Virus record (IMG/VR): IMGVR_UViG_3300022856_000003
From: a virus
Direction: 5' to 3' (one strand)
DNA length: 64,000 bases
Shown: in pieces, positions 458 to 61,225 of the stretch
How positions within the stretch are numbered: position 1 is the stretch's first letter
How the letters are laid out: the number at the start of each line of letters is the position of its first letter
Position numbers and translations under genes: made by a program
The notes under the pieces: model-generated
The model's database searches: none
What the model saw: the letters and a program-made list of their open reading frames with translations, nothing else
What the model was told of the DNA's origin: nothing

Positions 458-1072
458 ATGATGGACGACAGTGTCGTAGACGACCTGATCAGTGAGACGA
501 TTTCCGCTCAGGCGGGCCACAACTGGGAGAGCCATACGGTCACCCACGGCAAGGAACTCAACCTTGTCGACGGTTCGACACATCTCAAGAATCTGCCGCC
601 GCTGGTGATCAACGTCGATGACCCGTATGTGTTGGTCAGCGTCGGAGTCAATCGCACCACAGACCTCGGGAAGAGCGAGATGGCGAAGGTCGGAATCCGA
701 CTGAGCGCCCTTGTCCCACGTAGCGAGCGCGGAGAACTCTTCTCCTGGCTCGAGGATCTCGCCAACGACATGCACGCCCGTGAGATGGCTGGCCTCAAGG
801 CGCAGGATCAGCCGAGCATCGACGAGTTCGTCAACGGGTTGAAGTGGTACCAAGGAACCATGCCCCGTATGAGCCTCTACATGGAATATGGGCTCACCCT
901 GAACCTGGGCGACTGGCAGTTCGACAAGCCGTCGGTCGGCGTCAACGAGACGTTCAACCCTGACGACTTCGCGGTGATCTGGAAGGACATCAGCAACTTC
1001 CTCGGGGCACGCATCCAGAAGGCCGTGGCAAAGGCGAGGGCTCCGAAGTCCGCTGCCCCTGCCGGTCTGTGA
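458..1072 (+). CDS. hypothetical protein
   Basis: 204-aa ORF, GAGGAGG SD upstream, typical codon usage. Confidence 0.7.
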   Translation: MMDDSVVDDLISETISAQAGHNWESHTVTHGKELNLVDGSTHLKNLPPLVINVDDPYVLVSVGVNRTTDLGKSEMAKVGIRLSALVPRSERGELFSWLEDLANDMHAREMAGLKAQDQPSIDEFVNGLKWYQGTMPRMSLYMEYGLTLNLGDWQFDKPSVGVNETFNPDDFAVIWKDISNFLGARIQKAVAKARAPKSAAPAGL

Positions 1073-1083
1073 AATCGATTTCG
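1070..1083. repeat. dispersed 14-bp palindrome copy (TGAAATCGATTTCG), overlaps stop codon
   Basis: Read directly; one of 19 copies. Confidence 0.9.
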
Positions 1084-1096
1084 TAGAGGAGTACAG

Positions 1097-2503
1097 ATGA
1101 GCATCGACAAGCTGGCCCTGTTGCGCGCACAGCACACGAAGGTGAACGAAACCTACGGCGAAGAGATCGTCCGCAAGGGCATCATCGTCGACATCCCGCG
1201 AATCCCCACGGGGTCGCTATCTCAAGATGTGATCTGTGGCTGCAACAGTGCTGGCTATGGCGGTTGGGCCGTCGGGCACATGAACTGCGTCGTCGGCTGG
1301 GAATCCAGCGGGAAAACGACCGCCTGTCTCAAGGCAATCGGCAACCTCCAGAAGATGTGCGTTCGCTGCTACCGCGAGGCTGTCAACGTAGGAGTTACCC
1401 GACTTCTCGACGATGAAGGAGCGCCGGTACTCTCAGTCATCGGCAAGAAGCTCGGACCAGAAGGTGAGCCGATCGACAACCTCGTCCCGTATTACACGGT
1501 TGTGGGGAAGTGCTCCTGTTTCAAGGAGGGTCTTTGGACTCCCGACTTCCCGGAGTTCACAGGGAACGTCAAGCAGAAGAAGGAGCAGAAGGCTGAGTGG
1601 GCGCTCGAACAAGAATCCCTGCTCGCCAACAGCTTTGAGGCCGCGACCATCGTCTACGCGGACTGCGAGAACACGCTCGACCTCAAGTGGGGCAAGCGAC
1701 ACGGCGTCCATGCCTACGTCTGGGACGAGGAGTACCAGTCTCACTGCCCCGTTGCTCAGTTCCAACAGGTGGTCCCCGGGTATGCCGAACAGTGCATCGA
1801 CCTCGTGGATGAGTACATCATCGGTGGAGCCGTCGACATGATCGTCGTGGACTCGATCCCGGCAATGGTCCCGAAGATCGAACGCGATGCTTCCGCAGAG
1901 GACCTCCAGCGAGGGATCCAGGCGCAGCTCATCAACAAGGCTGTGCGTCGATGGGTGGGTTCTGTTGCCGACATGCGAGCGAGAACGGTTGGTCGTCGAC
2001 TCGTCACGATGATGATCGTCCAGCAGTGGCGTCACTCGATGAGCGCCTTCGCCGGTAACACGATGCCGGGAGGCAACGGACAGAGGTTCGCTTACTCGAT
2101 CATCAACGAGTACTACACGAACGACAAGGAGGAGAGGAAGGACGGCACGATGAACGCGGGCAAGGATTCCGAGGCCATCAAGACGACCTACACCCTCCGA
2201 GTCAACGTGAAGAACCGGAAGAACAAGACCTCGCCTCCGTTCCGCACCAGCAGCTTCCGAATGGCCCTGGTGGATGATGAGGACATCAAGGCGGGTGCTG
2301 TGCTCGACCTCGACTACATCTTCAAGACGGCGATGGCCCTGGGGATGGTTGAGAAGGTCGGCTCGAAGTACAAGTTCCTGGGCAAGGACTACACGGCGCA
2401 GTCACACATCGTCTCGCTTCTCTCGATCAAGCCCTCGATCAAGCGAAGGACGGTCAAGAAGATCCGCCAGATCGTCTACTCCAACACCGAAGGACAGACT
2501 TGA
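1097..2503 (+). CDS. recA: RecA/UvsX-like recombinase with a Cys-containing insertion
   Basis: IPTGSLSQD, Walker A GWESSGKTT, YADCENTLD, Walker B IVVDSIPAM, PGGNGQRF, KNKTSPPFR. Confidence 0.9.
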   Translation: MSIDKLALLRAQHTKVNETYGEEIVRKGIIVDIPRIPTGSLSQDVICGCNSAGYGGWAVGHMNCVVGWESSGKTTACLKAIGNLQKMCVRCYREAVNVGVTRLLDDEGAPVLSVIGKKLGPEGEPIDNLVPYYTVVGKCSCFKEGLWTPDFPEFTGNVKQKKEQKAEWALEQESLLANSFEAATIVYADCENTLDLKWGKRHGVHAYVWDEEYQSHCPVAQFQQVVPGYAEQCIDLVDEYIIGGAVDMIVVDSIPAMVPKIERDASAEDLQRGIQAQLINKAVRRWVGSVADMRARTVGRRLVTMMIVQQWRHSMSAFAGNTMPGGNGQRFAYSIINEYYTNDKEERKDGTMNAGKDSEAIKTTYTLRVNVKNRKNKTSPPFRTSSFRMALVDDEDIKAGAVLDLDYIFKTAMALGMVEKVGSKYKFLGKDYTAQSHIVSLLSIKPSIKRRTVKKIRQIVYSNTEGQT

Positions 2504-4406: not shown

Positions 4407-4420
4407 CGAAATCGATTTCG
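4407..4420. repeat. dispersed palindrome copy (perfect, extends to ACGAAATCGATTTCGT)
   Basis: Intergenic; extended -10-like TGtTAGAAT at 4436-4444 downstream. Confidence 0.9.
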
Positions 4421-7367: not shown

Positions 7368-7666
7368 AGAAGGGCGTGAACACAGCCCTCTACTCCGGGA
7401 ATGTAGGGAGCCGCTTTGAAGACTCGGACATCGACGGTCGAGATCCGAGGTTTTCCTTCGACATCTGCGGCGATCGTCGAGATGACAAGACGTGGGTGAC
7501 CATCAACGTGTTCCACGTCGAGACCATCTTGGACCTGCGAAATCGATTTCGCGATGGGACATTTAGCCAGGGCAGTTATGTCGTCGCGACAGGCTCTCTG
7601 ATGAAATGGAAGAGGGGACTTGCCATCCGCGTGGAATCCCTGGTTCTTTCTGAGAAAGCAGGTTGA
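7364..7666 (+). CDS. single-stranded DNA-binding (OB-fold)-like protein
   Basis: VNTALYSGNVG...WVTINVF...GSYVVATGSL resembles SSB strands; no acidic tail. Confidence 0.55.
   Translation: MKKGVNTALYSGNVGSRFEDSDIDGRDPRFSFDICGDRRDDKTWVTINVFHVETILDLRNRFRDGTFSQGSYVVATGSLMKWKRGLAIRVESLVLSEKAG
7538..7551. repeat. dispersed palindrome copy (intragenic, encodes RNRF)
   Basis: GCGAAATCGATTTCGC. Confidence 0.9.
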
Positions 7667-7808: not shown

Positions 7809-8744
7809 ATGTCCGATGAATCCCCCCTCGCGTCCGTTGACGCAATCGAAGCGGTCGAGATGACCGAAATCGAGAAGACCGAACTTCGTCAGGCGGTCAT
7901 CGTCGCGAAGGAGGCCGTCGAGAACGGCTACTGGGATCTCGCCAGTCTGCTCCACCGCGTGTGGGACGACAGCCTCTTCACCGAGTGGGGCTACGACGAC
8001 TTCGCCTCGTACATCGACGGCGAGCTGAACTACACGATGCGGACGGCTCAGTACCTCGTTCGCATCGCGGGCTACTTCGGCAAGATGGACGAGGAAATCC
8101 AGGTGTGGGTCAAGGCCCTCGGCTGGAGCAAGGCCAAGGAGCTGGTCAAGCGCGTCACCCCGGAGAACTTCGCCCACTGGAAGAAGATCATCGCGGGCAA
8201 GTCCGTCGCCCAGATTCAGGCGCTCCTCAAGGAGGACACCGGATCCGACACCGTCGCCAAGGAGGCCACGGACGAAGAGAAGCCGAAGCGCATGGGCTTC
8301 TCGCTCTTCGAGGACCAGACCGCGACCGTCAACCAGGCCCTCGAGAAGTGCAAGGACGAAGCGAACAGCGACAAGGACGGCAACGCGCTCACCCTGATCT
8401 GCCAGGACTACCTCTCCAGCGGAGATTCGTCGCTCGACGCGCGACTCCTCGCCATCGAGAAGACCTTCGGCGTGAAGATCATCGCGGTGCGAATCGAAGA
8501 GGGCGGTGTCTCCTATCCCTACGGTGAGGCCAACCTCGACGAGCTGCTCGCTTCGGACGACGAGCCCGACGGCGAAGCGACCATCGATGAGGAGACCGTC
8601 GCCCCCGATGACGAGGCCCCCGTCGAAGGTGATGACCTCGGCGACCTCAACCAGAAGGAGTTGGTCGCTCTCTGCAAGGAGCGCGGGATCGTCTGCAAGA
8701 CGAAGGACTCGAAGCCGACCTTGATCGGCCTGCTCTCGGCGTAG
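7809..8744 (+). CDS. putative DNA-binding protein with C-terminal SAP/HeH(Rho-N)-like motif
   Basis: WGYDDFASYI...RTAQYL HTH-like region; LNQKELVALCKERGI...KPTLIGLL; strongly biased codons. Confidence 0.55.
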   Translation: MSDESPLASVDAIEAVEMTEIEKTELRQAVIVAKEAVENGYWDLASLLHRVWDDSLFTEWGYDDFASYIDGELNYTMRTAQYLVRIAGYFGKMDEEIQVWVKALGWSKAKELVKRVTPENFAHWKKIIAGKSVAQIQALLKEDTGSDTVAKEATDEEKPKRMGFSLFEDQTATVNQALEKCKDEANSDKDGNALTLICQDYLSSGDSSLDARLLAIEKTFGVKIIAVRIEEGGVSYPYGEANLDELLASDDEPDGEATIDEETVAPDDEAPVEGDDLGDLNQKELVALCKERGIVCKTKDSKPTLIGLLSA

Positions 8745-8892: not shown

Positions 8893-9954
8893 ATGAATCA
8901 AGCGACACTAGGGTTCGAGCGTAAAGACCGCATCGAACTTGCGGACGGCCGAATCATCCTGGGAGGTCCGCAGTCTTGGACGGACAACGGCAAGAAGGTC
9001 CCGCCACGAGTCCTCCAGTTTTACAACCCCCATCGCGGCACGAGCTACCTTGTCCGCTCTGCGCTCCACAAGGAGATAAGGCGAGGCAACATCAAGCGTT
9101 CCATCGCGTTCGCCGCCTGGGCCGACAAGTGCAAAAAGGGAAGCGGACGAACCTACCTCCGTCGAATCCTGTTTGAGGAGACTCGGAACGTCCGCATCCT
9201 CCAGATGTTCCGAGACAAGGCCGAGACCCGTGACATCGTCATCGCCATGTGTCGGTCGGCGAAGGACTGGGAAGTCGACCAGGGTCACGGCATCTGTTTC
9301 CCTAAGTGGTACAAGGTCGTCGCAAGCCATAACTGGTATGGCAAATACGATTCCTGGTCCTCCGAGTTCCAGTGGCCAGACGACCCGGAACAAGTGATCA
9401 AGGATGCCGCCGCTGCCGGAGACCATGAGACGCTCATGGATCTGGTCGTGATGACGAGCGGTCCTTGCCTGCCCCGCTCTGAGGAGGTCCGCGACCTCAT
9501 CCGACCTCTGCTCTCGAAGATCGCGAGCGAGCGAGTTGATCCGAAGTGGCGTGACGCTGTGCGATCACTGCGGACGAAGAAGCATCACGAGGAAGTCCTG
9601 TTGCTCGCGCAGATCATCACAGGCGAGTGGGACGAGGACGCTTCCAACCACCTCCACCCCGCCCAGCATGGGCGGCGCGTAGATATCCCGATTTTCGAGA
9701 CCTACGTCTTCGATCCTCACACGATGCAGGGGAACAGGATCTTCAAGGCGAGGAAGGCGGCTGGTGAACTGGACTGGCACCTGCCGATGCCGCCCGACTT
9801 CGACATGCGATGGTCGGGACGTGACGCAGGGACGCTATGGCGGTACCTTGCGATGGAGCAGCACGGAACCACTGATCTCCTGTGGGAGGACGTGAAGCTC
9901 GAAGGCCAGCTCAAGGTGAACTGGGACCACTGCTACAAGGGAGAGTTCGAGTGA
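8893..9954 (+). CDS. stand-alone RarA/MgsA C-terminal-like helical protein
   Basis: SALHKEIRRG...YLRRILFEE...YVFDPHT..G; no Walker A motif. Confidence 0.5.
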   Translation: MNQATLGFERKDRIELADGRIILGGPQSWTDNGKKVPPRVLQFYNPHRGTSYLVRSALHKEIRRGNIKRSIAFAAWADKCKKGSGRTYLRRILFEETRNVRILQMFRDKAETRDIVIAMCRSAKDWEVDQGHGICFPKWYKVVASHNWYGKYDSWSSEFQWPDDPEQVIKDAAAAGDHETLMDLVVMTSGPCLPRSEEVRDLIRPLLSKIASERVDPKWRDAVRSLRTKKHHEEVLLLAQIITGEWDEDASNHLHPAQHGRRVDIPIFETYVFDPHTMQGNRIFKARKAAGELDWHLPMPPDFDMRWSGRDAGTLWRYLAMEQHGTTDLLWEDVKLEGQLKVNWDHCYKGEFE

Positions 9955-10670
9955 CCACTCCGAAGATCCGTGGAAACCCATGCACGGTGAATCAGCCGTG
10001 TCTGTTTCCTCGACTCCACATCATGAACCGAGCAGCCAGGGTGAAGACATTCATCGTCCTGTCGTCTGCCCAGTTCATGAGGAAATCTGACCAGGCACTC
10101 CTGTGGGTGACTCTGCGCGGAGTGCCAACGTCCATACGGATTCCGACCACTTCCGGTCGCGTGCCGCTGCGCGAGAAGTTCGTCCAACTCGATGAACGCG
10201 CCATGGGCAAGATCCTGCGACGCATCAAGAGCGAGTGGCCGAAGACCGCCGATGCCGAGGGTGCCCTTGCACTACTCGAGGTGGAGCTGAGAGCAACAAA
10301 CGGGCGCTCTATGGCTCAATGCGGGCTCCACTCGATGCGACACCGCTCCAACATCCTCGGTCTCACAGGCACGACCTTCGTCGACGATGTCGATGTGGCA
10401 CCGCCGATCCCTGGTGATCCAAGTGGGTGGATGCTCGACCAGTGCTTGAACATCGGGGCCAGTTCCTACTATGCTGGTGGCACAGCCATCAACGCTTACA
10501 TCGACCACGACAAGTGGAAGAGAAGGGGCGTGAGGCTTCTGGAACAGGACTGGAAAGTTCCGAAGGAAATCGTTGATCTCCTCGGACACGAAGTCTCAAC
10601 CAGCGTGCTGGATGTCATAGCCCACGGTGGGCTGGATGCACTTCGGAGAGAACTTGCCAGTCACCCTTGA
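9951..10670 (+). CDS. WbqC-like protein
   Basis: NQPCLFP...FIVLSSAQF...GASSYYAG...YID...SVLDVI matches the WbqC family pattern. Confidence 0.7.
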   Translation: MTTPKIRGNPCTVNQPCLFPRLHIMNRAARVKTFIVLSSAQFMRKSDQALLWVTLRGVPTSIRIPTTSGRVPLREKFVQLDERAMGKILRRIKSEWPKTADAEGALALLEVELRATNGRSMAQCGLHSMRHRSNILGLTGTTFVDDVDVAPPIPGDPSGWMLDQCLNIGASSYYAGGTAINAYIDHDKWKRRGVRLLEQDWKVPKEIVDLLGHEVSTSVLDVIAHGGLDALRRELASHP

Positions 10671-11241
10671 GACCTATCTCGAAAAAGCAGCCAGTGGGGA
10701 CAAGACCCTCGACGCTCTCTGCTGGCCCAGCCTCGACCGCGTGGAATCGCTCTACATCGAGTGGTTCGAGACCTGCCGAGAACGTGGAGTCCAGGTAGAC
10801 GGCTGCGACCTCCTAGACGTAGGTGAGGGTCTTGGCCTGTTCCAGGAGTGGCTCAAGAAGGAGTGGATCACCATGAAGGTGACCGGCGTTGAGGCTGCAA
10901 AGGAGTTCCACGAACACTGCGTCGAGAACTACCCGGAGCACACGCATGTCCACGGTGTTTTTCCTCATCATGCGCTGGGATCGTTGTACGACCATGTGGT
11001 CATGTTCGGGACACTGACGTGGATGAGCGAGGAGATGGCCAACGAGGTCGTCGTCGCTGGAGCTTTGAGGGCGAAGCGTTCTCTGGCATTCAACCTCATG
11101 GATCCTGCTCTGTACTCAGGAGCGTTCGAGGCGTTCCACCCTGCCCGCCTGCTCGAATCGCTCAAGGTCCTGGGATTCGACGTGATCATCCTGCACAAGC
11201 CGAAAGAGCAAGAGAACCTCTACGTCGCGGTGAGGAAATGA
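10654..11241 (+). CDS. class I SAM-dependent methyltransferase-like protein
   Basis: LLDVGEGLG motif I, VTGVE motif II, YDHVVMFG; GGAGAG SD before TTG. Confidence 0.7.
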   Translation: MPVTLETYLEKAASGDKTLDALCWPSLDRVESLYIEWFETCRERGVQVDGCDLLDVGEGLGLFQEWLKKEWITMKVTGVEAAKEFHEHCVENYPEHTHVHGVFPHHALGSLYDHVVMFGTLTWMSEEMANEVVVAGALRAKRSLAFNLMDPALYSGAFEAFHPARLLESLKVLGFDVIILHKPKEQENLYVAVRK

Positions 11242-12680
11242 GAATCCTCTACGTCCCGTTCTTCAGCAACATCAACTACGAGGGGTGCAGCATCTTCAAT
11301 GCGATGCGCGTCCTGTTGATGAACATGGTGAAGCAGCACAACGACGTGTTCATTCACTGGCCGGTACCTGCCCCGCCGTTCTCGACGAAGAACCTGGGCT
11401 ACATCGACCACCCTCGCGTCGAGACCTTCCCGGTGAAGGCGATCAGACTCCAGGGAAACGACGCGGTCTTCGTGCCGTCCGACCTGTTCGAGCGGTTCAA
11501 CTCCCATTGGGGTGACACCCCCATCGACCTCATCCTCTGCGACAAGCCCCGTGTGGCGTTCTGGGTGAAGATGCTCATGAACCAGCATCTCAGGCACCAC
11601 GAGACAGAGATCCCCATCATGACCTTCTCCCAGTACGCACTGGTGAGGAGCCGTGAGTCGGACCAGGATTCCTCGGAGGACTTCGAGCTTGCTCAGGTGC
11701 TCGGGTGGTTCTCGGCTCAAAAGACGGTCTGGCCGTCCTCGCGTGATCGTCGGATCGGACTCCAGGCTGCTCGTCGCTACCTGCGACCGAGCGCGGTGAA
11801 CCGGATCATCGAGCGTTCCATCGACGACGTTCCGAACAGCATCGATACGGACCGGATCACGGGTCACATGAGTGTCCGATCCAAGGACGAGATGCTCATC
11901 AACTATGGCTCGCGCTTCGCTCACGGGTACCGACCCGCGAAGGTGTTCGAGGAGATGGAGAGCGTTTTCAAGGGTGGACGCCAGGTCAAGTTCGTCATCA
12001 CTTCACCAAGCAAACCAGCGAAGTTCAGCAGCGTCCTCTTGGGTGAACTGACAGAGCGCGGAGTGCCTTATGAGGCGCACATTCCCTGTGGTCAGACGAA
12101 GTTCTACCGCGAGGCGTCCCGATGCCATGTCGTGCTCAGGATGGAGCCGGGGTACGAATCCAGTCTCTCACTCCGTGAGCACATGTTCATGAAGCTCGCT
12201 GTGGTGATGCCGAGGGGCAAGGTCATCGAACCTCTGCTCGAGGGCTACCCGTGGCAGTACGACACGGTCGCTGAGGCTCGCACCATGCTCCGCTACCTCG
12301 TCGACCACTATTGGGACGAGGACGTGCAGGAGACGCTGGAGACGTTCCGAGACAGGGTAGTTGAGCTGAACAGCGCCTCGACAAGTGGAGAGCGTCTGTA
12401 TCACCACTGCGTCGGCGTCGTGGCTGGTGTACTGCCCGAGCTGTCCAGCGTGAAGCAGACCGTCTCACTGTGCATGGACGCCATCGAGAGATCCGGCAAG
12501 AGAGAGTTCACTTGGACCGAGTTCTGTCTGATGTGCAAGAAGCACACGGACTCCGGGATCGAACCGAAGAAGCACATCTACTTCGGTCGGACGAACATGA
12601 CCTTCAAGCACGCTCTCATCCATGCCGGGTGGGTGGACGACTGCCAGGGGCCGGAACCGCACTTCGTAGAAGTCAAATGA
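11238..12680 (+). CDS. GT-B fold glycosyltransferase (GT4-like)
   Basis: MRILYV start, PNSID, YGSRF, FYREASRCHVV, ESSLSLREHM (ExnE-like motif). Confidence 0.7.
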   Translation: MRILYVPFFSNINYEGCSIFNAMRVLLMNMVKQHNDVFIHWPVPAPPFSTKNLGYIDHPRVETFPVKAIRLQGNDAVFVPSDLFERFNSHWGDTPIDLILCDKPRVAFWVKMLMNQHLRHHETEIPIMTFSQYALVRSRESDQDSSEDFELAQVLGWFSAQKTVWPSSRDRRIGLQAARRYLRPSAVNRIIERSIDDVPNSIDTDRITGHMSVRSKDEMLINYGSRFAHGYRPAKVFEEMESVFKGGRQVKFVITSPSKPAKFSSVLLGELTERGVPYEAHIPCGQTKFYREASRCHVVLRMEPGYESSLSLREHMFMKLAVVMPRGKVIEPLLEGYPWQYDTVAEARTMLRYLVDHYWDEDVQETLETFRDRVVELNSASTSGERLYHHCVGVVAGVLPELSSVKQTVSLCMDAIERSGKREFTWTEFCLMCKKHTDSGIEPKKHIYFGRTNMTFKHALIHAGWVDDCQGPEPHFVEVK

Positions 12681-13345
12681 CCGTCCTGATGGGCGCGAAG
12701 TCCATCCTCGTGGTGGGCGCTCATGCTGACGATATGGAACTCGGCTGCGGAGGCTTCGTCGCCTCCATAATTGCGAAGGGCTCGAGTGTGACCTCTCTGG
12801 TCATGACGGGCTCGCCATCGACGGATCACGAAGGACGAGTCTGGCGCGACAACGACTCAGCGAGTCGCTCGTCAAGGGCCGCAGCTAAAGTCCTTGGTGG
12901 TGTGACAGTCCGGTTTCTCGACTTCGACGATATGGCCGTGCCGTACAACCGGAAGTCGATCCACGATGTGAACAGAGTCATCGACGAGATCCAGCCAGAT
13001 CTCATCATCACCCACTGGGTTGGTGACTCGAACTCTGACCACTCCAACACCTCGCGCACGGTGATCACAGCAGCACGTCGCCACAAGAACGTGCTGTCGA
13101 TGGAGCCTCCACTCTCGAAGCTGAACGTCGGAGGCGTTTTCCCTGGCTGCGTCTTCGCAACTTTTGGTGAAGATGTTCTCGCGATGAAGCTCGAAGCCAT
13201 CCGATGCCACAGTAGTGAGATGCCGCGACTAGCTCTCGGGAACGGCTTCGAGCAGCATGGCCGACGAAATCGATTGCACGGCTCCCAGGCGGGTGCCTAT
13301 GCCGCCGAGCTGTTCACCCCAATCCAGATCACCTGGAGCCCCTGA
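12677..13345 (+). CDS. PIG-L/LmbE family deacetylase
   Basis: VVGAHADDMELGCGG, PDLIITH...SDH, CHSSE. Confidence 0.9.
   Translation: MTVLMGAKSILVVGAHADDMELGCGGFVASIIAKGSSVTSLVMTGSPSTDHEGRVWRDNDSASRSSRAAAKVLGGVTVRFLDFDDMAVPYNRKSIHDVNRVIDEIQPDLIITHWVGDSNSDHSNTSRTVITAARRHKNVLSMEPPLSKLNVGGVFPGCVFATFGEDVLAMKLEAIRCHSSEMPRLALGNGFEQHGRRNRLHGSQAGAYAAELFTPIQITWSP
13265..13278. repeat. dispersed palindrome variant (CGAAATCGATTGCA), intragenic
   Basis: Read directly. Confidence 0.75.
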
Positions 13346-14130
13346 TGGCAAAGCAGTATGAGATCCGCGAACTGGACCTCGACCTGATCGACCCGAACCC
13401 TTGGAACCCCAACGAGCAGAGTGAGTCCACGTTCGACATCCTCGCTGAGGAGCTGGACGACGATGGAGACGGAGTCGGGTACATCGACCTGATCCAGGTG
13501 GTGCCGTGGGGCGAACCAGGGCGCTTCCGCATCATCGGAGGGGAACACCGCTGGCGTGCTCTCCGTGTGAATGGCGAAGAGACGGCTGACGCTCTGGTCC
13601 TGATCGATGAGAAGTGGCAGGACGAGGACCTTCAGAAGTTCGTCACCATGAGGCTCAACTCGCTCAAGGGGAGCATCAATCCTGCGAAGTTCATGGCGCT
13701 CTACAACGACCTGGCCGACAGGCACTCCGCAGACGACATGCAGCGCCATATGGCTGTGACAGACGACGATGCCTGGCACCTGATGACAAAGGACGTTAGG
13801 AAGCAGCTCGAGTCCGCTCTCGACGGTGCTGGCGGTGATGACGCGAAGAAGCAGAAGGCTCTTGAGGAGTTCGACAAGGTCGCGAAGGAGGTCAAGACAG
13901 TCGACGACCTCTCGAACGTGCTCAACAAGATCTTCAACGAGTACGGCGACACGCTCGACTCGAACTTCATGTGGTTCACGTTCGGCGGGAAGAAGCATCT
14001 TCATCTGACGATGGAGGCTTCGGATTGGAAGGCCGCAGAGGCGCTCATCTCGATCGTGAAGAAGAATGGTTTGCAGGCCGACAAGGTGTTTGGGAACTTG
14101 ATGAGCGACTGGGTCGCAAAGAACAAGTGA
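13345..14130 (+). CDS. ParB/Srx N-terminal domain protein
   Basis: IDPNPWNPN, IIGGEHRWRA, RLNSLKG. Confidence 0.85.
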   Translation: MAKQYEIRELDLDLIDPNPWNPNEQSESTFDILAEELDDDGDGVGYIDLIQVVPWGEPGRFRIIGGEHRWRALRVNGEETADALVLIDEKWQDEDLQKFVTMRLNSLKGSINPAKFMALYNDLADRHSADDMQRHMAVTDDDAWHLMTKDVRKQLESALDGAGGDDAKKQKALEEFDKVAKEVKTVDDLSNVLNKIFNEYGDTLDSNFMWFTFGGKKHLHLTMEASDWKAAEALISIVKKNGLQADKVFGNLMSDWVAKNK

Positions 14131-14693: not shown

Positions 14694-15116
14694 ATGTCCC
14701 GCTTGAAGCCGTCGGAAGTTGCAGTTGCCCTTGAGCGTGTGCGTACACATCATCCGGCTGAGGCCGAACGCCTAGCAGGACACATTGAGGCAATCGGCAC
14801 TGAAGACGCGCTCCTGTCTGTCGTTCGTGAGATGATCGAGGCGAAAGAGCAGTCGAAGGCGGCTGAGGAAGTCACCGCGAAGATTCTCGACGCCTGGAAG
14901 CCCATCATGGAGGTTGGCTCGATGGCTATTGGGAAGATGGCGACCGAGGAGAAGCGCGCCAACGACCTGAAACAGAGGGAGCTGGACAGACAGGATCGCC
15001 TCGACGTTCAAGGGCTGGAGGTCACAAGGCTCCGGTACAAGCACATCATCGTCCCTGCCGTCACAGCCTTGGCGGGATTCCTCGCCGCGTGGAGTGCGTT
15101 CAACTTCGCCGGATGA
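14694..15116 (+). CDS. coiled-coil protein with C-terminal transmembrane helix (holin-like?)
   Basis: AAGGAG SD; hydrophobic IIVPAVTALAGFLAAW at the C-terminus. Confidence 0.5.
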   Translation: MSRLKPSEVAVALERVRTHHPAEAERLAGHIEAIGTEDALLSVVREMIEAKEQSKAAEEVTAKILDAWKPIMEVGSMAIGKMATEEKRANDLKQRELDRQDRLDVQGLEVTRLRYKHIIVPAVTALAGFLAAWSAFNFAG

Positions 15117-15127
15117 AATCGATTTCG
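15114..15127. repeat. dispersed palindrome copy overlapping stop codon
   Basis: TGAAATCGATTTCG; TGgTATGTT extended -10 at 15145-15153. Confidence 0.9.
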
Positions 15128-15188: not shown

Positions 15189-15836
15189 ATGTCCGACACG
15201 AGATTCGAGAAGCGTTCAGGGACGTTTGGCAAGCTCCACGGCTTCGCTAGCTTCCCGGAGGCAAAGCACCGCATTCTCGCTGGTGTGACTCCGACTCGCG
15301 TAGCTCGATGGATGCACGAACAGGGTGACTACACAGACATCCCCGTGAGGAGTCTCGCAGCGACCCTCTGTGCGTACCGTCGGACGCTGTCCGCTCGTGA
15401 GCTAATCGCTACGAGGGAGCCTCAGTTCGTTGCTGAGGCAAAGGATGAGGTCAACTCTGGTCTCGACGAGCTTCAAGAACTTGCCGCCATCTTCGCCATC
15501 CAGAAGAACCGCGTGGTCATGGGCCACGAACTGGAGTCGAAGCTCAAGATCCTCAACAAGAGCCTGGGCAATGAGGTCCGTATCGCCGGAGAACTTCTCC
15601 GCACTTCGATGACCATCAAGCAGTCCTTGGGACTCGCTTCCGGTGGTGACGCCGATCGACGTGGTGACCCGACCTTCAAGCATGACGTTCGCTCCAGATA
15701 CGGTGAGCGCGTCGCACAGGTGCTTGAGAACCCCGGGAAGCGAAACCGCGTGCTCAACGTCGTCTCGAGCTTGCTTGAGGCCGCAGAGGCAAAGAAGGTT
15801 GAAGCGACGGTGCCTGTGAAGACGGCCACTGGATAA
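15189..15836 (+). CDS. putative terminase small subunit
   Basis: N-terminal HTH-like region plus coiled coil, immediately upstream of TerL. Confidence 0.5.
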   Translation: MSDTRFEKRSGTFGKLHGFASFPEAKHRILAGVTPTRVARWMHEQGDYTDIPVRSLAATLCAYRRTLSARELIATREPQFVAEAKDEVNSGLDELQELAAIFAIQKNRVVMGHELESKLKILNKSLGNEVRIAGELLRTSMTIKQSLGLASGGDADRRGDPTFKHDVRSRYGERVAQVLENPGKRNRVLNVVSSLLEAAEAKKVEATVPVKTATG

Positions 15837-15839
15837 CCG

Positions 15840-19758: not shown

Positions 19759-20430
19759 ATGACTCCCGCCCGTGTTCAAGCACTTGACGAGGCCCGTTCC
19801 ATCGCCGCCTCTATGGCTCAAGGTGATGAACTCTCCTCCCAGCGAAATCGATTGCGCCAGCTCGACGAGGCGGTGAGCAAGGGGAATGCCCTCTCAGTCG
19901 ACGGGATGATGCGCCGACTGAACAGCCGACGATCACGTGCTTCGTGGTCTGAGGTTTACACGGAGCATGAACGCGACATCCGAGCCCATCTACATGGCCG
20001 GTTGACCGAGATCGTCGCAGGGCTTCCTGACACACGTTTCCGGGTCCTCGCCTCGAAGCACGCCCCTGACGACCCAGAGCGATATCGCACCGACGTGGTC
20101 GAGTCTCTGGGTGCTGTGCTCGACAAATACGAGGAGCTGGCCAATAAGGCTGGTGCCTTGATCGACGAGGCAATCGCTGCCCCCACTGGGTATCTCGATG
20201 CCGCCAATGGGCTGATCGAGAGCAACATCCGTGGGTTCCTTACCTCGCTCCAGTCCAGCTCGGCCTTCCTTGTAGGGGACGGACGCGCTATCTTGGGCGA
20301 GGAAGCTGCTGGTGGGGCTCTGGCTCGTCTGGCAAGATTCCATGACCTTTTGGCTGACGGCCTTGAGGACTTCACCTTGGCCTTCACCTACGCGAGTGAT
20401 CTCGCGACCGCTTCCAGGAGCCAGACATGA
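19759..20430 (+). CDS. hypothetical head-associated protein
   Basis: Located between portal and prohead core genes. Confidence 0.6.
   Translation: MTPARVQALDEARSIAASMAQGDELSSQRNRLRQLDEAVSKGNALSVDGMMRRLNSRRSRASWSEVYTEHERDIRAHLHGRLTEIVAGLPDTRFRVLASKHAPDDPERYRTDVVESLGAVLDKYEELANKAGALIDEAIAAPTGYLDAANGLIESNIRGFLTSLQSSSAFLVGDGRAILGEEAAGGALARLARFHDLLADGLEDFTLAFTYASDLATASRSQT
19843..19856. repeat. dispersed palindrome variant (CGAAATCGATTGCG), intragenic
   Basis: Read directly. Confidence 0.8.
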
Positions 20431-42852: not shown

Positions 42853-43548
42853 ATGAGCAAGACTCCCATCGGTGAACGACATGCCCTAGACGCCTACGGA
42901 ACAGATCCGAGGTTTGCTCTAGCAATCTGTCGTCGTCTCGCAGACATCGGCCAGCTCTTCGATGGCGCTCGCGTTCTCGAACCCCATGTGGGTAAGGGGC
43001 CGTTCGTCCGTGCTCTTCGTCAGGTGGCGAGAGAACGCGAGTGGAAGTTCGACATCATGGTCTGTGACATCGACCCGAACGTCCCAGGGATGAAGTACGC
43101 CGACCAGTTCAAAGATGTCACGGCCATGCCCCCATGCGCGTTCCTTGAGTGGGCCGCAGAGTGGGAAGGTGAACCCTGGGATCTGGTTGTCGGCAACCCA
43201 CCCTTCTCTGTAGTGGAGCCGGGAAAGAAGCGAGGTCCTGTCGTGGCCCACCTCCACATCCAGGCAGCTCGAAAGATCGCGAAGGCGACATGCCTTGTCA
43301 CCCGTGTTGGGCTGCTGACGACCTCCGACGACCGGCCCTTCGCCCTTGAGGAGCCTCCGAACCATCGGTTCGATGCTTACCCGCGTCCGAGCTTCACGAT
43401 CCGTGGCACCGATGCCTGTGAGTATCTGGGTGGACTGTGGGATGACCGCATGGACCGAGTTCAGATCGCTGGTGTCGATTGCGCCACCTCTGAGATCCTC
43501 CAATGGAAGGAAATTGGCCGCTGGCCGAGGACTCTTCCGGGCGGGTGA
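42853..43548 (+). CDS. N6-adenine DNA methyltransferase-like protein
   Basis: DAYGT, VLEPHVGKGPF (motif I), VVGNPPF (motif IV), RPSF. Confidence 0.8.
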   Translation: MSKTPIGERHALDAYGTDPRFALAICRRLADIGQLFDGARVLEPHVGKGPFVRALRQVAREREWKFDIMVCDIDPNVPGMKYADQFKDVTAMPPCAFLEWAAEWEGEPWDLVVGNPPFSVVEPGKKRGPVVAHLHIQAARKIAKATCLVTRVGLLTTSDDRPFALEEPPNHRFDAYPRPSFTIRGTDACEYLGGLWDDRMDRVQIAGVDCATSEILQWKEIGRWPRTLPGG

Positions 43549-43559
43549 AATCGATTTCG
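43546..43559. repeat. dispersed palindrome copy overlapping a stop codon, abutting a promoter
   Basis: TGAAATCGATTTCG, 4 bp upstream of TTGACT. Confidence 0.9.
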
Positions 43560-43563
43560 CGTG

Positions 43564-44568: not shown

Positions 44569-44582
44569 ATCAGGAGCCTTTC

Positions 44583-49146: not shown

Positions 49147-49463
49147 TGGCTAAGGTACGAACCAGCAGGCGGTCATTCCTTCGCAACTGCGAAGTGCAGG
49201 AGGAACAGGTTCTCGACACGGTGTTCACCTACTGGGAGATCTTCGAGCCGCCAGCCATCCTGGAGCAGGACGAGGACATCACCCACACCTGCACCGGTCA
49301 GGATCGGATCGACAGTCTCGCGAACAGGTACTACCAGGACTCGAGGCTCTGGTGGGTCATCGCTCAGGCCAATGACCTGGACGATCCCGTGTCATCCATG
49401 AAGGTCGGTCTTGAGCTGACGATTCCAAACCCTCGCTACGTGCTTGAGCGCGTGGCGGTGTGA
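49146..49463 (+). CDS. LysM/gpX-like baseplate protein
   Basis: DRIDSLANRYYQDSRLWWVIAQAN...LTIP. Confidence 0.85.
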   Translation: MAKVRTSRRSFLRNCEVQEEQVLDTVFTYWEIFEPPAILEQDEDITHTCTGQDRIDSLANRYYQDSRLWWVIAQANDLDDPVSSMKVGLELTIPNPRYVLERVAV

Positions 49464-49474
49464 AATCGATTTCG
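49461..49474. repeat. dispersed palindrome copy overlapping a stop codon
   Basis: TGAAATCGATTTCG. Confidence 0.9.
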
Positions 49475-54415: not shown

Positions 54416-54429
54416 CGCAATCGATTTCG
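54416..54429. repeat. dispersed palindrome variant (CGCAATCGATTTCG) immediately after a stop codon
   Basis: Reverse complement of the CGAAATCGATTGCG variant. Confidence 0.85.
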
Positions 54430-59022: not shown

Positions 59023-59820
59023 ATGCTGCGCGTGCTGGATGACGAACTGCGAAATCGATTGCGCGATGCGATCGATGGCTATGAGAAGACATGCCCTGTG
59101 GGTCCTGACGACCTCAAGTCCGGGCAGGCGGAAGCCTTGCTTCCTTTTATTCGACAGGACTATGCGACCGTCGATGAGTTCTTTCAGATCCGCTCGCAGC
59201 AGGTAGAGGAGGCCGGTCACAAGGTTCAGTGCGGCAACTGCAAGACCGCTAACTGCTGCTACGACTACGCGATAGTCACGCCGCCAGAGATGGTCCTGGT
59301 GATCGACGCCTTCCAGAGACTCGATGTCGACGACCAACTCCACGTAGCCAGACAGAACTGGTCATGGTCGAAGGCCCACAAACCCGAGTCTGAGGTGTTC
59401 CCCATCGTCATGGACGAACCGAAACAGGGAGCCGCCTACTACGAGTTGATGGAGGAAGAGGGCCTCAGCGCAGATCGGATGATGATCGGTATGACGACCG
59501 AGCGCAGCTTCCGAGAGAAGACGCCTTGCTCGTTCCTCAAGGACAATCGGTGCATGATCTACGAGGACAGGCCGCTGGCTTGCCGTGGACACAACTCCAT
59601 CGATCCGCGAGGCCCGAAGGTCTGCACGACCGTCTTGTGGGACATGGTCGCTACGAAGGTCAAGCGATTCGACATGGCCGACATCTGCGCTGCGGCTGTC
59701 AGGAACTACATGAGTGCGGGACTGCCGATGCATCCGAATGGCGAGCTGAACGCTGTACTGGCCCGATGGCTACAGCAGCAAGCGACCCTCGCAAACATGG
59801 ACACCGACGACCAACCCTGA
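59023..59820 (+). CDS. YkgJ/FliB-like Cys-cluster (Fe-S/Zn) protein
   Basis: CGNCKTANCC...CSFL...CMIYEDRPLACR. Confidence 0.8.
   Translation: MLRVLDDELRNRLRDAIDGYEKTCPVGPDDLKSGQAEALLPFIRQDYATVDEFFQIRSQQVEEAGHKVQCGNCKTANCCYDYAIVTPPEMVLVIDAFQRLDVDDQLHVARQNWSWSKAHKPESEVFPIVMDEPKQGAAYYELMEEEGLSADRMMIGMTTERSFREKTPCSFLKDNRCMIYEDRPLACRGHNSIDPRGPKVCTTVLWDMVATKVKRFDMADICAAAVRNYMSAGLPMHPNGELNAVLARWLQQQATLANMDTDDQP
59050..59063. repeat. dispersed palindrome variant (CGAAATCGATTGCG), intragenic
   Basis: Encodes ELRNRLR, as does the copy at 61088. Confidence 0.8.
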
Positions 59821-59870
59821 TACAATCAAACCACGTCAATGAGCCCGCTCAAGGTGAGCCTGGAGGGACG

Positions 59871-60683
59871 ATGGATCCAATGACCGCACAGATGGGGATG
59901 ATCCCCAAGTTCGACCCGCTGGGATTCCCGGTGATGGCCGACATCCTCACGCCGATCGAGATCGGTAACGTCCGCGTCGATACGTTCGTGGTCGATGAGC
60001 AAGAGGCGTTTGTCACGTTCATGAAGTGCCAGTTCAGCGGTGAAGGGAGAACCTACGTCGCCCCTGGTCGCTACGCCCGAATGCTGGTCCGCACAGACCA
60101 GGACATGGCTCCTGACGAGTTCGGAGAGACGGAGGCTAAGTGGCGCATCATGATGTCCGACACTATGGCTGAGCGCGTTGAAACGCAGAAGGCTCTCAAG
60201 AACCTGACCGGCAATGTCCTCGTTGCTGGACTAGGGCTCGGGATGCTTGTTCACGCTCTGGTGTTGAAGCCTGATGTGAAGTCGGTGACCGTCATCGAGG
60301 TCAACCCGTTCGTCATCTCCGCTGTGGCTCCGACGCTGCCGAAAAACGTCACGGTCATTCACAAGTCAGTCTTCGACTGGCAACCGGATCCGGGCGTCGT
60401 CTACGACACGTGGTTCTATGACATCTGGCCGACCATCGGTGAGCACATGCTGACGCAGATGAAGCAGCTTCGCTTCCTACATCAGGACGGTCATTCCAAG
60501 GCCACATGGGTCGAGGGGTGGCTTGAACGCGAACTCGAGGCCGTACAGGCTATCGAGGACTCGATTCTGGAGTACGCGAAGCATCACGGTGTCGACCCTG
60601 TCAAGGTCGTCGGGATGGTGAACTCTCGTATCCGACTCGCCCTGGAAAACGAAGAGGTCAAGCGGATGAGGGAGCAAGGATGA
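59871..60683 (+). CDS. spermidine-synthase-like SAM-dependent methyltransferase
   Basis: MMSDT..E, GNVLVAGLGLG, VTVIE, YDIW. Confidence 0.75.
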   Translation: MDPMTAQMGMIPKFDPLGFPVMADILTPIEIGNVRVDTFVVDEQEAFVTFMKCQFSGEGRTYVAPGRYARMLVRTDQDMAPDEFGETEAKWRIMMSDTMAERVETQKALKNLTGNVLVAGLGLGMLVHALVLKPDVKSVTVIEVNPFVISAVAPTLPKNVTVIHKSVFDWQPDPGVVYDTWFYDIWPTIGEHMLTQMKQLRFLHQDGHSKATWVEGWLERELEAVQAIEDSILEYAKHHGVDPVKVVGMVNSRIRLALENEEVKRMREQG

Positions 60684-61225
60684 AACCCTGCAAATCCTGT
60701 CCGTTTCGCAAGGACTCTCGTCACGGCCTCTGGAGCGCAGCCCACTACCTGCTCGTGGCCTACCTCCAAAGCGCCGACATCCCCAGTCTTCCGTCGATGG
60801 GGTGCCATCAGTACAACGGGAAGGTCAAGCCGAGTCTCAAGGCTGAGGTGTCTCCCTACTGCGGAGGCTGGATTCGCGCCGCCAAAGACAACGTGGCCAT
60901 CGGTATTCGTGTCGCCTTCGGGAGAATCGACAACGATGAGATCCACGATGGGTACGACGTGATGAGCCCCGAGGAGATGGCGAAGACCAACGGGATCGAC
61001 ATGACTCGTGTCCCGGCTCTCCGGTTCGACCATCGCAACCAGGACGTGCAGAGTTACGTGGAATGGCTCAACGAGCACACGGAGCTGCGAAATCGATTGC
61101 GCGCCGATCCTGAGTACGCTCGGACCTTTATCGTTCCTGGGAGTCCACTCGCCAACCCTCCGGGACAGGCCGAGGTTGATGAGATCTTTGGCATCGACAA
61201 TGCCTACCAGCAGGATCAACCATGA
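60680..61225 (+). CDS. Cys-rich protein (DUF6283-like)
   Basis: KPCKSCPFRKD..G.W, GCH, CGGW. Confidence 0.6.
   Translation: MKPCKSCPFRKDSRHGLWSAAHYLLVAYLQSADIPSLPSMGCHQYNGKVKPSLKAEVSPYCGGWIRAAKDNVAIGIRVAFGRIDNDEIHDGYDVMSPEEMAKTNGIDMTRVPALRFDHRNQDVQSYVEWLNEHTELRNRLRADPEYARTFIVPGSPLANPPGQAEVDEIFGIDNAYQQDQP
61088..61101. repeat. dispersed palindrome variant (CGAAATCGATTGCG), intragenic
   Basis: Read directly. Confidence 0.8.

Follow-up and report, generated by a model that had tools for sequence, protein, structure and literature searches.

At the DNA level, the window (the whole 64-kb stretch analysed here, out of a T4-like phage genome of roughly 144 kb) raises one question: why does it carry one 14-16 bp palindrome per ~3 kb, and what reads it? 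A sequence-only reading had listed 19 copies, and all 19 coordinates hold. Six copies of CGAAATCGATTTCG are perfect, 12 have one mismatch, and one has two. In 100 dinucleotide shuffles, the 14-mer was expected 0.27 times (largest count, 2). The core AATCGATT, intact in 17 copies, was expected 0.59 times. We also ran the proposed codon-preserving shuffle, permuting synonymous codons per gene and shuffling intergenic DNA; here the 14-mer averaged 2.5 copies (max 6) and the core 0.5 (max 2). By a wide margin, the palindrome is the most over-represented word of the window. It is really 16 bp long, GCGAAATCGATTTCGC, with a flanking G at -1 in 15/19 copies and C at +1 in 13/19.

The regularity of the sites (Table 1) is real. 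Gaps between neighbours range from 784 to 5915 bp (CV 0.48), in line with the earlier statement that none exceeds about 6 kb, and the spacing is more regular than uniform placement (P = 0.0005) or random gene junctions (P = 0.001). Four sites had correctly been placed on a TGA stop (1070, 15114, 43546, and 49461), and six closely after a stop (4407, 25354, 29462, 37295, 39281, and 54416). Nine copies had been called intragenic; new gene calls leave eight inside ORFs, five of them within the last 17-124 nt of the gene. For sites 19843 and 59050, called intragenic, starts may be mis-called and the true ones further downstream. A site begins -3 to +30 nt from a stop in 10/19 cases (0.7 expected), and the next start codon is at most 160 nt away in 15/19 (3.4 expected). 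Given this marked concentration at gene junctions, calling the sites independent of gene structure goes too far for this phage.

Table 1. Palindrome sites and associated genes in the window (distances in nt, from the site).
Feature	Coordinates	Strand	Context
Site TGAAATCGATTTCG	1070..1083	.	Overlaps TGA stop of upstream gene; RecA/UvsX-like start 13 nt on
Site, perfect	4407..4420	.	Stop 6 nt before; next start 67 nt on
Site, perfect	7538..7551	.	In 441-bp gap upstream of g13
g13, candidate palindrome reader	7809..8744	+	Predicted ParB/Noc/Spo0J-type DNA-binding fold, residues 36-149; SAP-like C-terminus, 274-311
Variable island between g13 and g19	8893..13345	+	Sugar, glycosyltransferase, and modification genes
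Site, 2 mismatches	13265..13278	.	3' end of PIG-L gene; ParB-like g19 start 66 nt on
g19, candidate clamp/partner	13345..14130	+	Predicted ParB N-terminal (CTPase-type) domain, without canonical ParB DNA-binding domain
Site	15114..15127	.	Overlaps TGA stop; TerS-like g21 61 nt on
TerS-like g21 and large terminase g22	15189..17852	+
Site, core mismatch	16274..16287	.	Within large terminase gene; weakest of the 19
Site ...ATTGCG	19843..19856	.	Near 5' end of g24; possibly upstream of true GTG start
Site, perfect	23677..23690	.	104 nt before stop of gp21-like protease/scaffold; gp23 capsid gene 159 nt on
Site	25354..25367	.	Capsid gene stop 26 nt before; enclosed by 8-bp inverted repeat GGGAGGTG/CACCTCCC
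Site, perfect	29462..29475	.	Stop 2 nt before; next start 12 nt on
Site, core mismatch	31784..31797	.	Last 30 nt of topoisomerase IB gene; next start 13 nt on
Site	37295..37308	.	Tail-sheath stop 12 nt before
Site	39281..39294	.	Stop 2 nt before; GTG start at 39310, 15 nt on
Site, perfect	42762..42775	.	32 nt before ribonucleotide reductase stop; methyltransferase g48 77 nt on
Site	43546..43559	.	Overlaps TGA stop of g48
Site	49461..49474	.	Overlaps TGA stop; next start 10 nt on
Site CGCAAT...	54416..54429	.	Stop 2 nt before; next start 11 nt on
Site ...ATTGCG	59050..59063	.	Stop 100 nt before; alternative ATG 59075 11 nt on
Site ...ATTGCG	61088..61101	.	Within g66; next start 120 nt on

The palindrome is conserved by position in diverged T4-like relatives of 31-60% GC. 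As suggested earlier, we checked related phages and found the same or sister motifs at equivalent junctions; the sister variants are CGCAATCGATTGCG in L001/G006 (7 sites in 27.8 kb) and CGAACTCGAGTTCG in L007/L012. The site upstream of the g13 homolog is kept in L033 (between the g12 and g13 homologs), L212, and L215/L216. Other equivalents are found in L172 (same junction as 29462, after the g33 homolog), in L139 (within the g24 homolog, as 19843 in the window), and before the g21 homologs of L212 and L217 (as 15114). Site numbers were four for L212 and three for L215.

Moreover, the same kind of lattice is present in at least seven unrelated phage groups. Unbiased k-mer enrichment retrieved 14-bp palindromes of the form TGCAAx-NN-xTTGCA (TGCAAT-NN-ATTGCA and variants) as even lattices of 19-54 copies in seven unrelated siphovirus lineages: Stenotrophomonas phage DLP_5 (35 sites), Vibrio phage VH2_2019 (34), RcTiptonus (48), JP1 (35), L338C (54), TM16 (19), and RcZahn (19). 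Their spacing CV was 0.41-0.66, and P was <= 0.004 for all but one of them. Across lineages, the two central bases vary most (CG, CA, TA, YT, AT) and the outer half-sites are conserved, as is characteristic of a dimeric helix-turn-helix reader. The earlier idea of a dimeric protein at genome-wide dyad sites thus fits the DNA-level conservation, the half-site-independent variation, the even spacing, and the sister lattices. We found no paper describing the lattice of the window.

The sites could instead be operators of a conventional dimeric transcription factor, from phage or host, controlling junction promoters (early-gene shut-off or a middle/late switch, for example), with even spacing reflecting operon structure and no ParB-type spreading. 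The junction concentration would fit such a plain factor too, as would VH2_2019, where 11/34 sites lie 8-13 nt upstream of a -35 box (TTGACA). Besides, sites 4407, 13265, 15114, and 43546 overlap or precede -35/-10-like hexamers, and the conserved site upstream of g13 suggests autoregulation. However, five sites are only 10-13 nt from a start codon, leaving no room for a downstream promoter, and spacing is evener than that of random gene junctions. About 80% of the DLP_5 and RcTiptonus sites are inside genes by a rough gene call. Site 43546 is 4 nt upstream of the best sigma-70-like promoter of the window (TTGACT-16-TACAAT), but only one strong promoter of this type lies near any site; the motif had been described as no fixed promoter element, and indeed the sites show no tie to sigma-70 promoters. 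Among the regulators proposed as binders, the XRE protein (44583, g50) lacks homologs in the other lattice phages, and the MerR-like HTH (1-365, g1) also occurs in lattice-free relatives such as G005. The resemblance to LacI-family operators led nowhere. Overall, we regard a conventional factor as unlikely.

Another possibility is that the motif acts in RNA at cistron junctions, as a small hairpin or protein-binding element for processing, stability, translational coupling, or repression. All genes are on one strand, many sites lie 10-16 nt upstream of starts, just 5' of the Shine-Dalgarno, and the stop-motif-SD-ATG layout recurs in L172/L032 and L007. Yet the 14-mer hairpin is essentially unstable (-1.1 kcal/mol or weaker), and of 15 variant half-site pairs none was compensated and 11 broke the pairing; we therefore disfavour an RNA hairpin and place selection on DNA, not on RNA or peptide. 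In DLP_5, asymmetric site centres occur in both orientations although nearly all annotated genes share one strand; in other phages, many sites are deep within genes. An RNA role is highly improbable.

To find the reader, we looked at which genes travel with the lattice. The seven lattice phages share few window genes, and iterative searches found the g13 and g19 families in 7/7 of them. We used G005, a complete, lattice-free relative, as control: by tblastn, the only window genes that DLP_5 and VH2_2019 both matched and G005 did not were g13, the PIG-L gene g18, and g19. Both g13 ('SAP-like') and g19 (ParB-like) had been named among four candidate binders, and both genes do travel with the lattices. 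Two lattice-free controls speak for the pair: Arthrobacter phage Kitkat has g19 and the glycosyltransferase but lacks g13, and iterative searches gave G005 a g13 homolog but no g19. On the other hand, g13 in a lattice-free phage may have another primary role. The association is also incomplete, and negative cases are few. In L217, which has g13, g14, g17, and g19, a perfect GCGCAATCGATTGCGC occurs just once in 20 kb; L218 and L219, with g13 and g19, show no repeated palindrome in the 20 kb covered. In mycobacteriophages, tblastn detected no g13 or g19 homologs.

The exceptions L217-L219 and G005 are what could be expected if the lattice were bound by a protein other than g13 and g19, from the host or encoded by the phage outside the window (64 kb of the roughly 144 kb), with the two genes merely riding in the same mobile module. 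Against this, half-sites are similar although hosts differ widely (Vibrio, Stenotrophomonas, Rhizobium, Rhodobacter, and those of the 31-60% GC phages, with no Actinobacteria), which argues for a phage-borne reader. Few other genes are common to all lattice phages, and the shared RecA-like, RuvC-like, exonuclease-like, TerS-like, and TerL genes mostly recur in lattice-free G005. Together with the predicted DNA-binding fold of g13, this makes a different reader rather improbable.

At the structural level, both folds can be assigned from predicted models. In the g13 model (pLDDT 79), residues 36-149 match ParB, Noc, and Spo0J DNA-binding domains in the top seven matches (Z 5.6-7.6, rmsd about 3 A over about 100 residues), a moderate match since Z is below 8 and the fold all-helical. 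An Atlas lead pointed to DUF3102 / ParB-HTH; the family is large and without a Pfam model, and comparison with the PDB gave no support at sequence level. In the g19 model (pLDDT 84), residues 6-138 match KorB 52-180 (Z 13.5, rmsd 2.2 A), and CTP-analogue-bound ParB is matched with Z 12.7. After this N-terminal domain, the model has generic helices where ParB has its DNA-binding domain. The g19 sequence also matches Spo0J and Noc, among other parts at the GERRxRA box, where g19 has GGEHRWRA. Taken together, g13 and g19 look like one ParB chromosome-clamp protein split in two. A fused g13-ParB protein was searched for, and none was found.

In the window, the g13-island-g19 block adjoins the terminase genes, and the order glycosyltransferase-x-ParB-like-g21-TerL is kept in unrelated phages. 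The island contains g14 (SAxHKxxRRGD motif, MgsA_C-like lead), a WbqC-like gene, a methyltransferase, g17 (homologs annotated as glycosyltransferase), and the PIG-L deacetylase g18. Such a variable sugar/modification island separates g13 from the ParB_N gene in the window, L212, L215, and L217; in L218 and L219 just one or two small genes lie between the two.

Since the lattice phages share both genes, we suggest that the palindromes are most likely docking sites for the g13/g19 pair, a parS/OB-like lattice read by a split ParB-type system, a reading to which we give somewhat better than an even chance. The ParB-like helix-turn-helix domain of g13 would recognise each dyad as a dimer. Lacking a DNA-binding domain of its own, g19 would contribute the ParB/KorB-type nucleotide-binding domain and a C-terminal domain; site-bound g13 could recruit or load it, and it might then occupy or slide over flanking DNA. 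With gaps of at most about 6 kb, no part of the genome would be out of reach. A precedent is given by phage ParB-like proteins without a DNA-binding domain, which switch on their cognate DNA thymine dioxygenases and are found together with glycosyltransferases and terminases (PMC13229309). In that system, mutations of the nucleotide-binding residues of ParB had no effect in vivo (PMC13229309), so clamp-like sliding cannot be assumed.

As for the purpose of the g13/g19 lattice, the likeliest may be to direct or switch on the post-replicative DNA-modification enzymes whose genes lie between the two. Since no TET/JBP dioxygenase is recognisable in the island, the published ParB-dependent enzymes are linked to it only by analogy. 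KorB-like long-range transcription control at gene junctions ranks second, and DNA condensation or handover to the adjacent terminase third.

Modification could also involve the palindrome directly, as substrate of a methyltransferase, a glycosylating or other modifying enzyme, or an endonuclease nicking or cutting at TCGA/ATCGAT, for example as entry points for recombination-dependent replication, late transcription, or packaging. Such a role seems very unlikely: conservation lies in the outer half-sites and is lowest at the centre, neither DLP_5 nor VH2_2019 has a g48 homolog, and enzyme targets require neither even spacing nor enrichment. Known nick motifs are asymmetric and strand-specific, unlike the palindrome. 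Still, TCGA/ATCGAT lies within the core, and two sites flank the methyltransferase gene g48 (NPPF motif). The DNA of DLP3, a relative of DLP_5, resists 15 restriction enzymes and is thus modified (PMC7326821), and motif-linked nicks are a precedent in other phages (PMC11780129).

Among known systems, the stoperators of Cluster A mycobacteriophages are asymmetric sites that follow the direction of transcription and are recognised by the immunity repressor of temperate phages. Both kinds of site come as many 13-14 bp copies, often at stops or gene junctions, and stoperators are bound by one phage protein; the window sites are instead palindromic and, where the centre is asymmetric, orientation-free. 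Cluster O mycobacteriophages carry more than 30 copies per genome of a 17-bp dyad repeat, TGTTCGGNNNCCGAACA, of unknown function (PMC4351075). These are also scattered, about one third intragenic, and not promoter-tied, in genomes encoding a ParB-like domain protein and glycosyltransferases (PMC4351075). They differ in sequence and spacer (7-3-7), and crowd towards one end of the genome instead of being evenly spread.

ParB-parS and Noc-NBS share with the lattice a 14-16 bp palindrome and a ParB-type helix-turn-helix reader, here predicted. Noc has about 70 dispersed sites. In the models, g13 36-149 superposes on their DNA-binding domains and g19 on their nucleotide-binding domains, here apparently on separate polypeptides. 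The window site is unrelated in sequence to parS or NBS, and the lattice is not known to serve segregation or nucleoid occlusion.

KorB has its own DNA-binding domain and the clamp-locking partners KorA/TrbA. As in KorB-OB, we find a ParB-family CTPase-fold protein (KorB being the best structural match of the g19 model) and a short palindrome dispersed at kb intervals on a mobile element, and a second small DNA-binding partner is predicted to cooperate with the clamp. In our case, DNA binding apparently resides in the separate g13, a ParA/IncC partner was not seen, and apparently lytic T4-like phages are among the carriers. KorB has 12 dispersed OB palindromes on IncP plasmid RK2 (reference 45 of PMC13229309; PMC13768133), against 19 sites in 64 kb here (dozens per genome).

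Finally, the 5mYOX ParB-like activators (PNAS 2026, PMC13229309) resemble g19 in keeping the nucleotide-binding and C-terminal domains without the DNA-binding domain, and in being encoded beside DNA-hypermodification genes, glycosyltransferases, and terminases. That system has a TET/JBP dioxygenase, of which none is recognisable in the window island, and PMC13229309 reports neither a cognate DNA site nor a separate DNA-binding partner. Should the two systems be related, the 5mYOX ParB-activator picture would gain the lattice and g13.

The sequence-only reading had counted 19 copies of a 14-bp palindrome in the window, and a search for CGAAATCGATTTCG with up to two mismatches recovered exactly these 19, at the same positions. 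Dinucleotide-preserving shuffles of the window predicted 0.27 copies vs. 19 observed, and 0.59 copies of the core AATCGATT vs. 17 observed. The enrichment also held in a codon-preserving check, which that reading had proposed: under this stricter null (synonymous codons permuted per gene, intergenic DNA shuffled), the 14-mer occurred 2.5 times on average (maximum 6) and the core 0.5 times (maximum 2). Over-representation in the window is far stronger for the palindrome than for any other word, the runners-up being ordinary coding words, and its flanking bases widen it to the 16-bp palindrome GCGAAATCGATTTCGC. The 19 sites have a mean spacing of 3.3 kb, and the coefficient of variation (CV) of their gaps is 0.48. 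The claim that they are roughly evenly spaced is statistically upheld, since 0.05% of uniform placements and 0.1% of random choices of gene junctions gave a CV so low.

At the positional level, 11 of the 19 sites are largely non-coding, although non-coding DNA makes up 7% of the window. Ten start between -3 and +30 nt from a stop codon (0.7 expected), and the next start codon lies within 160 nt of 15 (3.4 expected). Some intergenic spacers consist of a stop, the palindrome, a Shine-Dalgarno sequence and an ATG alone (e.g., 1070, 29462, 49461, and 54416). One site is 66 nt upstream of g19, the ParB-like gene, and another is upstream of g13, the candidate palindrome reader. A plain set of transcription-factor operators is a rival explanation for sites placed in this way. 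An association with sigma-70 promoters was rejected, as the 64 kb hold only two strong promoter-like sites, one of them beside a palindrome (43546). In view of the LacI-operator resemblance named in the sequence-only reading, the scanned window proteins were checked, and none had a LacI-type domain. The site after the capsid gene, at 25354, is enclosed by an 8-bp inverted repeat that gives a larger, possibly terminator-like stem-loop.

An RNA element is another rival reading of the dyad. The folding energy of the 14-mer is -1.1 kcal/mol or weaker. None of the 15 off-consensus positions is compensated on the opposite arm (pairing is lost at 11 and becomes a TGA-derived G.U at 4), and the half-sites therefore vary independently. 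Such variation fits a dimeric DNA-binding protein, which tolerates these changes; a hairpin does not.

The window covers 64 kb of a genome of about 144 kb, has 59% GC, and carries all its credible genes on the + strand, as judged from codon-position GC. Its gene products include a portal of the T4 gp20 type, a protease of the gp21 type, a gp23 capsid protein, a tail sheath and a UvsX/RecA-like protein; class II ribonucleotide reductase and topoisomerase IB are encoded too. Thus, it belongs to a distant T4-like myovirus. When the portal was used to scan IMG/VR and JGI metagenomes, the relatives retrieved from these public collections had portals of only 41-59% identity, and neither megablast of 20 kb nor tblastn of a 960-aa protein matched an isolated phage. 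The topoisomerase is of eukaryotic type and lies amid the structural gene block. Elsewhere, g48, a small DNA methyltransferase-like protein (EPHVGKGPF and GNPPF motifs; phrog_799) with a palindrome site on either side, is followed by a 313-aa zinc-ribbon protein without a family and a 199-aa XRE helix-turn-helix protein, a layout that recalls a restriction-modification or controller cassette.

Scanning IMG/VR for the exact motif was useful only because a few of the matches were true relatives: most were single chance matches, and the few came from homologous T4-like contigs that differ widely in base composition. The expectation that the sites would be conserved in relatives was borne out, as three of these contigs (L033, L172, and L139) keep sites at equivalent positions. 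Two closer relatives reached via g13, L212 and L215, carry four and three sites; one is again upstream of g13, and others begin right after TAG stops. Other T4-like contigs carry sister palindromes. The complete 198-kb relative G005 has no palindrome lattice, and a search for hidden or low-copy palindromes in G005 and in the contigs L217, L218, and L219 retrieved a single site, a perfect GCGCAATCGATTGCGC just upstream of the TerS-like gene in the 20 kb read of L217 (a 200-kb T4-like contig). No repeated palindrome was present within the 20 kb read of each of L218 and L219. As a separate observation, the T4-like contig L009 (IMG/VR 3300018080_000645) has no palindrome lattice and holds 7-8 copies of the non-palindromic GGTTGAGCCTGAGAA in 17.5 kb.

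Lattices are also found in unrelated phages. Searches by tblastn with g19 and with g13 matched overlapping sets of 80-110 kb siphoviruses, and unbiased k-mer enrichment in seven of them gave one dominant 14-bp palindrome each. Their mean spacing is 2-5 kb, and for six of these phages the regularity is significant (CV 0.41-0.66, P <= 0.004). In sequence, the half-sites are similar to the window variants CGCAAT/ATTGCG, and the central dinucleotide differs among phages. The sites show enrichment in non-coding DNA; in DLP_5 and RcTiptonus, however, about 80% lie within genes according to a rough gene call. The DLP_5 motif has an asymmetric centre, which is found both ways round (19 and 8 exact copies of the 10-mer). 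In Vibrio phage VH2_2019 (L175+L176), 11 of the 34 palindromes are 8-13 nt upstream of a conserved -35-like TTGACA box, TTGACAAAAC. These -35-proximal palindromes often come directly after a terminator hairpin, a fixed arrangement absent from the window. Besides, RcTiptonus (L184-L188) and JP1 (L201-L205) have in common a second strongly enriched word, the non-palindromic GGACAGTAAATG (6-13 copies), and L338C has 20 copies of TTGACAAAGGAT; both words are probably promoter elements.

Coordinates of window features, and palindromes in the phages compared
Feature or genome	Position in window	Motif	Sites	Remark
g13	7809-8744			candidate palindrome reader
g14	8893-9954			first gene of the island
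Variable island (g14-g18)	8893-13345			between g13 and g19
g19	13345-14130			ParB-like
TerL (g22)	15840-17852			large terminase
Inverted repeat	25329-25479	GGGAGGTG ... CACCTCCC		around site 25354
Topoisomerase IB	30603-31814			PF01028, E 4.6e-10
g48 region	42853-45182			methyltransferase-like, zinc-ribbon, XRE
L033 (31% GC)	as at 7538			site between g12 and g13 homologs
L172 (42% GC)	as at 29462			site after g33 homolog; two more 16 nt before start codons
L139				site within g24 homolog
L001/G006		CGCAATCGATTGCG	7 in 27.8 kb	sister palindrome
L007/L012		CGAACTCGAGTTCG		sister palindrome
L154		CCGCACACGTGTGCGG	4	sister palindrome
DLP_5		TGCAATCAATTGCA	35	siphovirus
VH2_2019		TGCAATTAATTGCA	34	siphovirus
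RcTiptonus		TGCAATCGATTGCA	48	siphovirus
RcZahn		TGCAATCAATTGCA	19	siphovirus
L338C		TGCAACYTGTTGCA	54	siphovirus
JP1		TGCAAACGTTTGCA	35	siphovirus; motif corresponds to GCAAACGTTTGC
TM16		TGCAACATATTGCA	19	siphovirus

In tblastn comparisons of the window genes, three alone were shared by DLP_5 and VH2_2019 but missing from the lattice-free G005: g13, g18 (PIG-L), and g19. With iterative searches, all seven siphoviruses proved to have members of both the g13 and the g19 family, and a g13 homolog was also detected in G005, which has neither g19 nor a lattice. In Arthrobacter phage Kitkat, g19 and a glycosyltransferase are present, with neither g13 nor a lattice. Two binders that had been put forward from the sequence lost ground here: the XRE protein g50 has no homolog in other lattice phages, and the MerR-like g1 is present in G005 too. 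The rule that both families bring a lattice has exceptions in L217 (g13, g14, g17, g19; one site), L218, and L219 (none in 20 kb), so copy number runs from one to dozens. The lattice is well associated with the two families, though short of proof.

For g19, the match to phrog_26387 (annotated 'ParB-like partition nuclease') is strong and that to PF02195 is weak. It aligns to Spo0J and Noc via the GERRxRA box, which reads GGEHRWRA, with one box arginine replaced by His. In its structural model (pLDDT 84), residues 6-138 superpose on KorB 52-180 (Z 13.5, rmsd 2.2 A), and the match to ParB bound to the CTP analogue CTPgammaS reaches Z 12.7. The model thus gives g19 a predicted ParB N-terminal nucleotide-binding fold with a GERRxRA-type box. 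Beyond residue 138, it shows generic helices that matched nothing ParB-like, and no helix-turn-helix DNA-binding domain is predicted in the same polypeptide.

For g13, there is no Pfam family, no match to the PDB by sequence or profile, and no KorA likeness by sequence. In its model (pLDDT 79), residues 36-149 superpose on DNA-binding domains, namely those of ParB, Noc, and Spo0J and, with a weaker match, that of SopB. The seven best matches have Z 5.6-7.6 over about 100 residues (rmsd about 3 A), moderate values for a helical domain; unrelated folds stay at Z <= 4.5. Independently, Atlas points g13 to DUF3102/ParB-HTH clusters, and its C-terminus is a SAP-like domain. Between them, g13 and g19 thus account, by predicted fold, for complementary portions of a canonical ParB. 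With 5630 cluster representatives, the g13 family is large. No fused g13-ParB protein was found; long g13 relatives carry inteins instead, with LAGLIDADG/intein insertions in P0133 (732 aa) and P0176 (691 aa). The large terminases of L217 and L219 likewise carry inteins.

The best-supported reading is that the palindromes are a parS/OB-like docking lattice of a split ParB-type system, in which g13 would read the sites and g19 would act as its clamp-like partner. Some other, unseen reader is a rival to g13. Co-variation of the recognition helix with the motif across 19 g13 homologs, judged by eye, gave no interpretable pattern, and the predicted complex of g19 with g13 scored 0.00, which, as a run without controls, speaks neither for nor against binding. 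No ParA-type ATPase was present among the approximately 45 proteins scanned in these 64 kb of the 144-kb genome.

Modification targeting, long-range transcriptional control, and packaging are candidate purposes for a docking lattice of this kind. Two gene orders recur across lineages: RecA ... RuvC-g13, and glycosyltransferase-x-ParB-like-TerS-like-TerL. One or two small genes separate g13 from the ParB gene in L218 and L219; in the window and in L212, L215, L217, and the P0031 contig, a variable island takes up this position. Its repertoire can include WbqC-like, methyltransferase, PIG-L, radical SAM, ATP-grasp, 2OG oxygenase, formyltransferase, aminotransferase, epimerase, and g17 glycosyltransferase-like proteins. 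The window island has the WbqC-like protein, methyltransferase, PIG-L, and g17 (homologs annotated glycosyltransferase), followed by the TerS-like protein and TerL. The window TerL shares 31-33% identity with the TerL proteins of DLP_5 and VH2_2019 along about 600 residues, and this likeness to siphoviruses with the lattice module means that packaging genes may travel with it.

That the lattice is the substrate site of an enzyme is a rival reading in this setting. DLP3 is closely related to DLP_5, and its DNA withstands 15 restriction enzymes (PMC7326821). A PF13532 2OG-Fe(II) oxygenase is immediately upstream of the ParB gene in L212 and the P0031 contig; in the window island, no TET/JBP-type dioxygenase was recognisable and g14-g18 had no PF12851 match. 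We rejected g14 as the expected dioxygenase: its family keeps SAxHKxxRRGD and DxHT rather than the HxD...H triad, and Pfam, PDB, and Atlas gave this role no support. The g14 family, which has no Pfam model, conserves SAxHKxxRRGD and DxHTxxGK (alignment A1) and resembles the C-terminal helical domain of MgsA/RarA-type proteins (an Atlas lead, PF12002, 11% of one cluster). In the T4-like L212, L215, and L218, it comes after g13, and it has homologs in JP1, RcTiptonus, DLP_5, and RcZahn.

Returning to the split ParB-type system, we consider a more specific version of it rather unlikely, namely that g13 marks sites about every 3 kb and g19 is loaded at these sites, bringing along or activating the DNA-modifying enzymes of the island. 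The lattice would then be the address for post-replication hypermodification of the phage, not the host, chromosome. If this were true, it would supply the missing DNA-targeting component of the ParB-dependent phage DNA-modification enzymes described of late. More generally, lattice-bearing phages occur in at least eight lineages and the g13 family numbers thousands, which points to a common means, as yet unexplained, by which phages organise or label a whole chromosome. The question is directly testable in the culturable phages DLP_5, VH2_2019, RcTiptonus, and JP1.

We found no paper describing the motif family or the split arrangement; searches with the motif strings returned primers only, and those combining WbqC, ParB, and phage returned no paper. 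Cluster A stoperators are asymmetric and oriented with transcription, whereas the window site is a perfect palindrome. Recently, phage ParB homologs without a DNA-binding domain were reported to activate cognate DNA thymine dioxygenases (2026 paper, PMC13229309). They co-occur with glycosyltransferases (31%), ParBs (27%), and terminases (19%), and no cognate DNA site was reported for them (PMC13229309). The model of g19, with nucleotide-binding and C-terminal domains and no DNA-binding domain, resembles these 5mYOX activators, as does its neighbourhood of glycosyltransferase, sugar-tailoring enzymes, and terminase; however, the window island shows no recognisable TET/JBP-type dioxygenase. If g13 and g19 are a split ParB, they would offer these activators a candidate site and adaptor. 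A split ParB would also be a candidate parallel for a decade-old puzzle in Cluster O mycobacteriophages, which have a comparable unexplained dyad-repeat array and a ParB-like protein (PMC4351075).

Like ParB/parS, the window has a cognate-type 14/16-bp palindrome on the same replicon as g19, in 19 copies; it differs in that the predicted ParB-type DNA-binding fold sits in a separate protein, g13. The closest described system is KorB, which has OB operators dispersed on RK2: the window also has 19 dispersed sites, one abutting a strong sigma-70-like promoter and most not.
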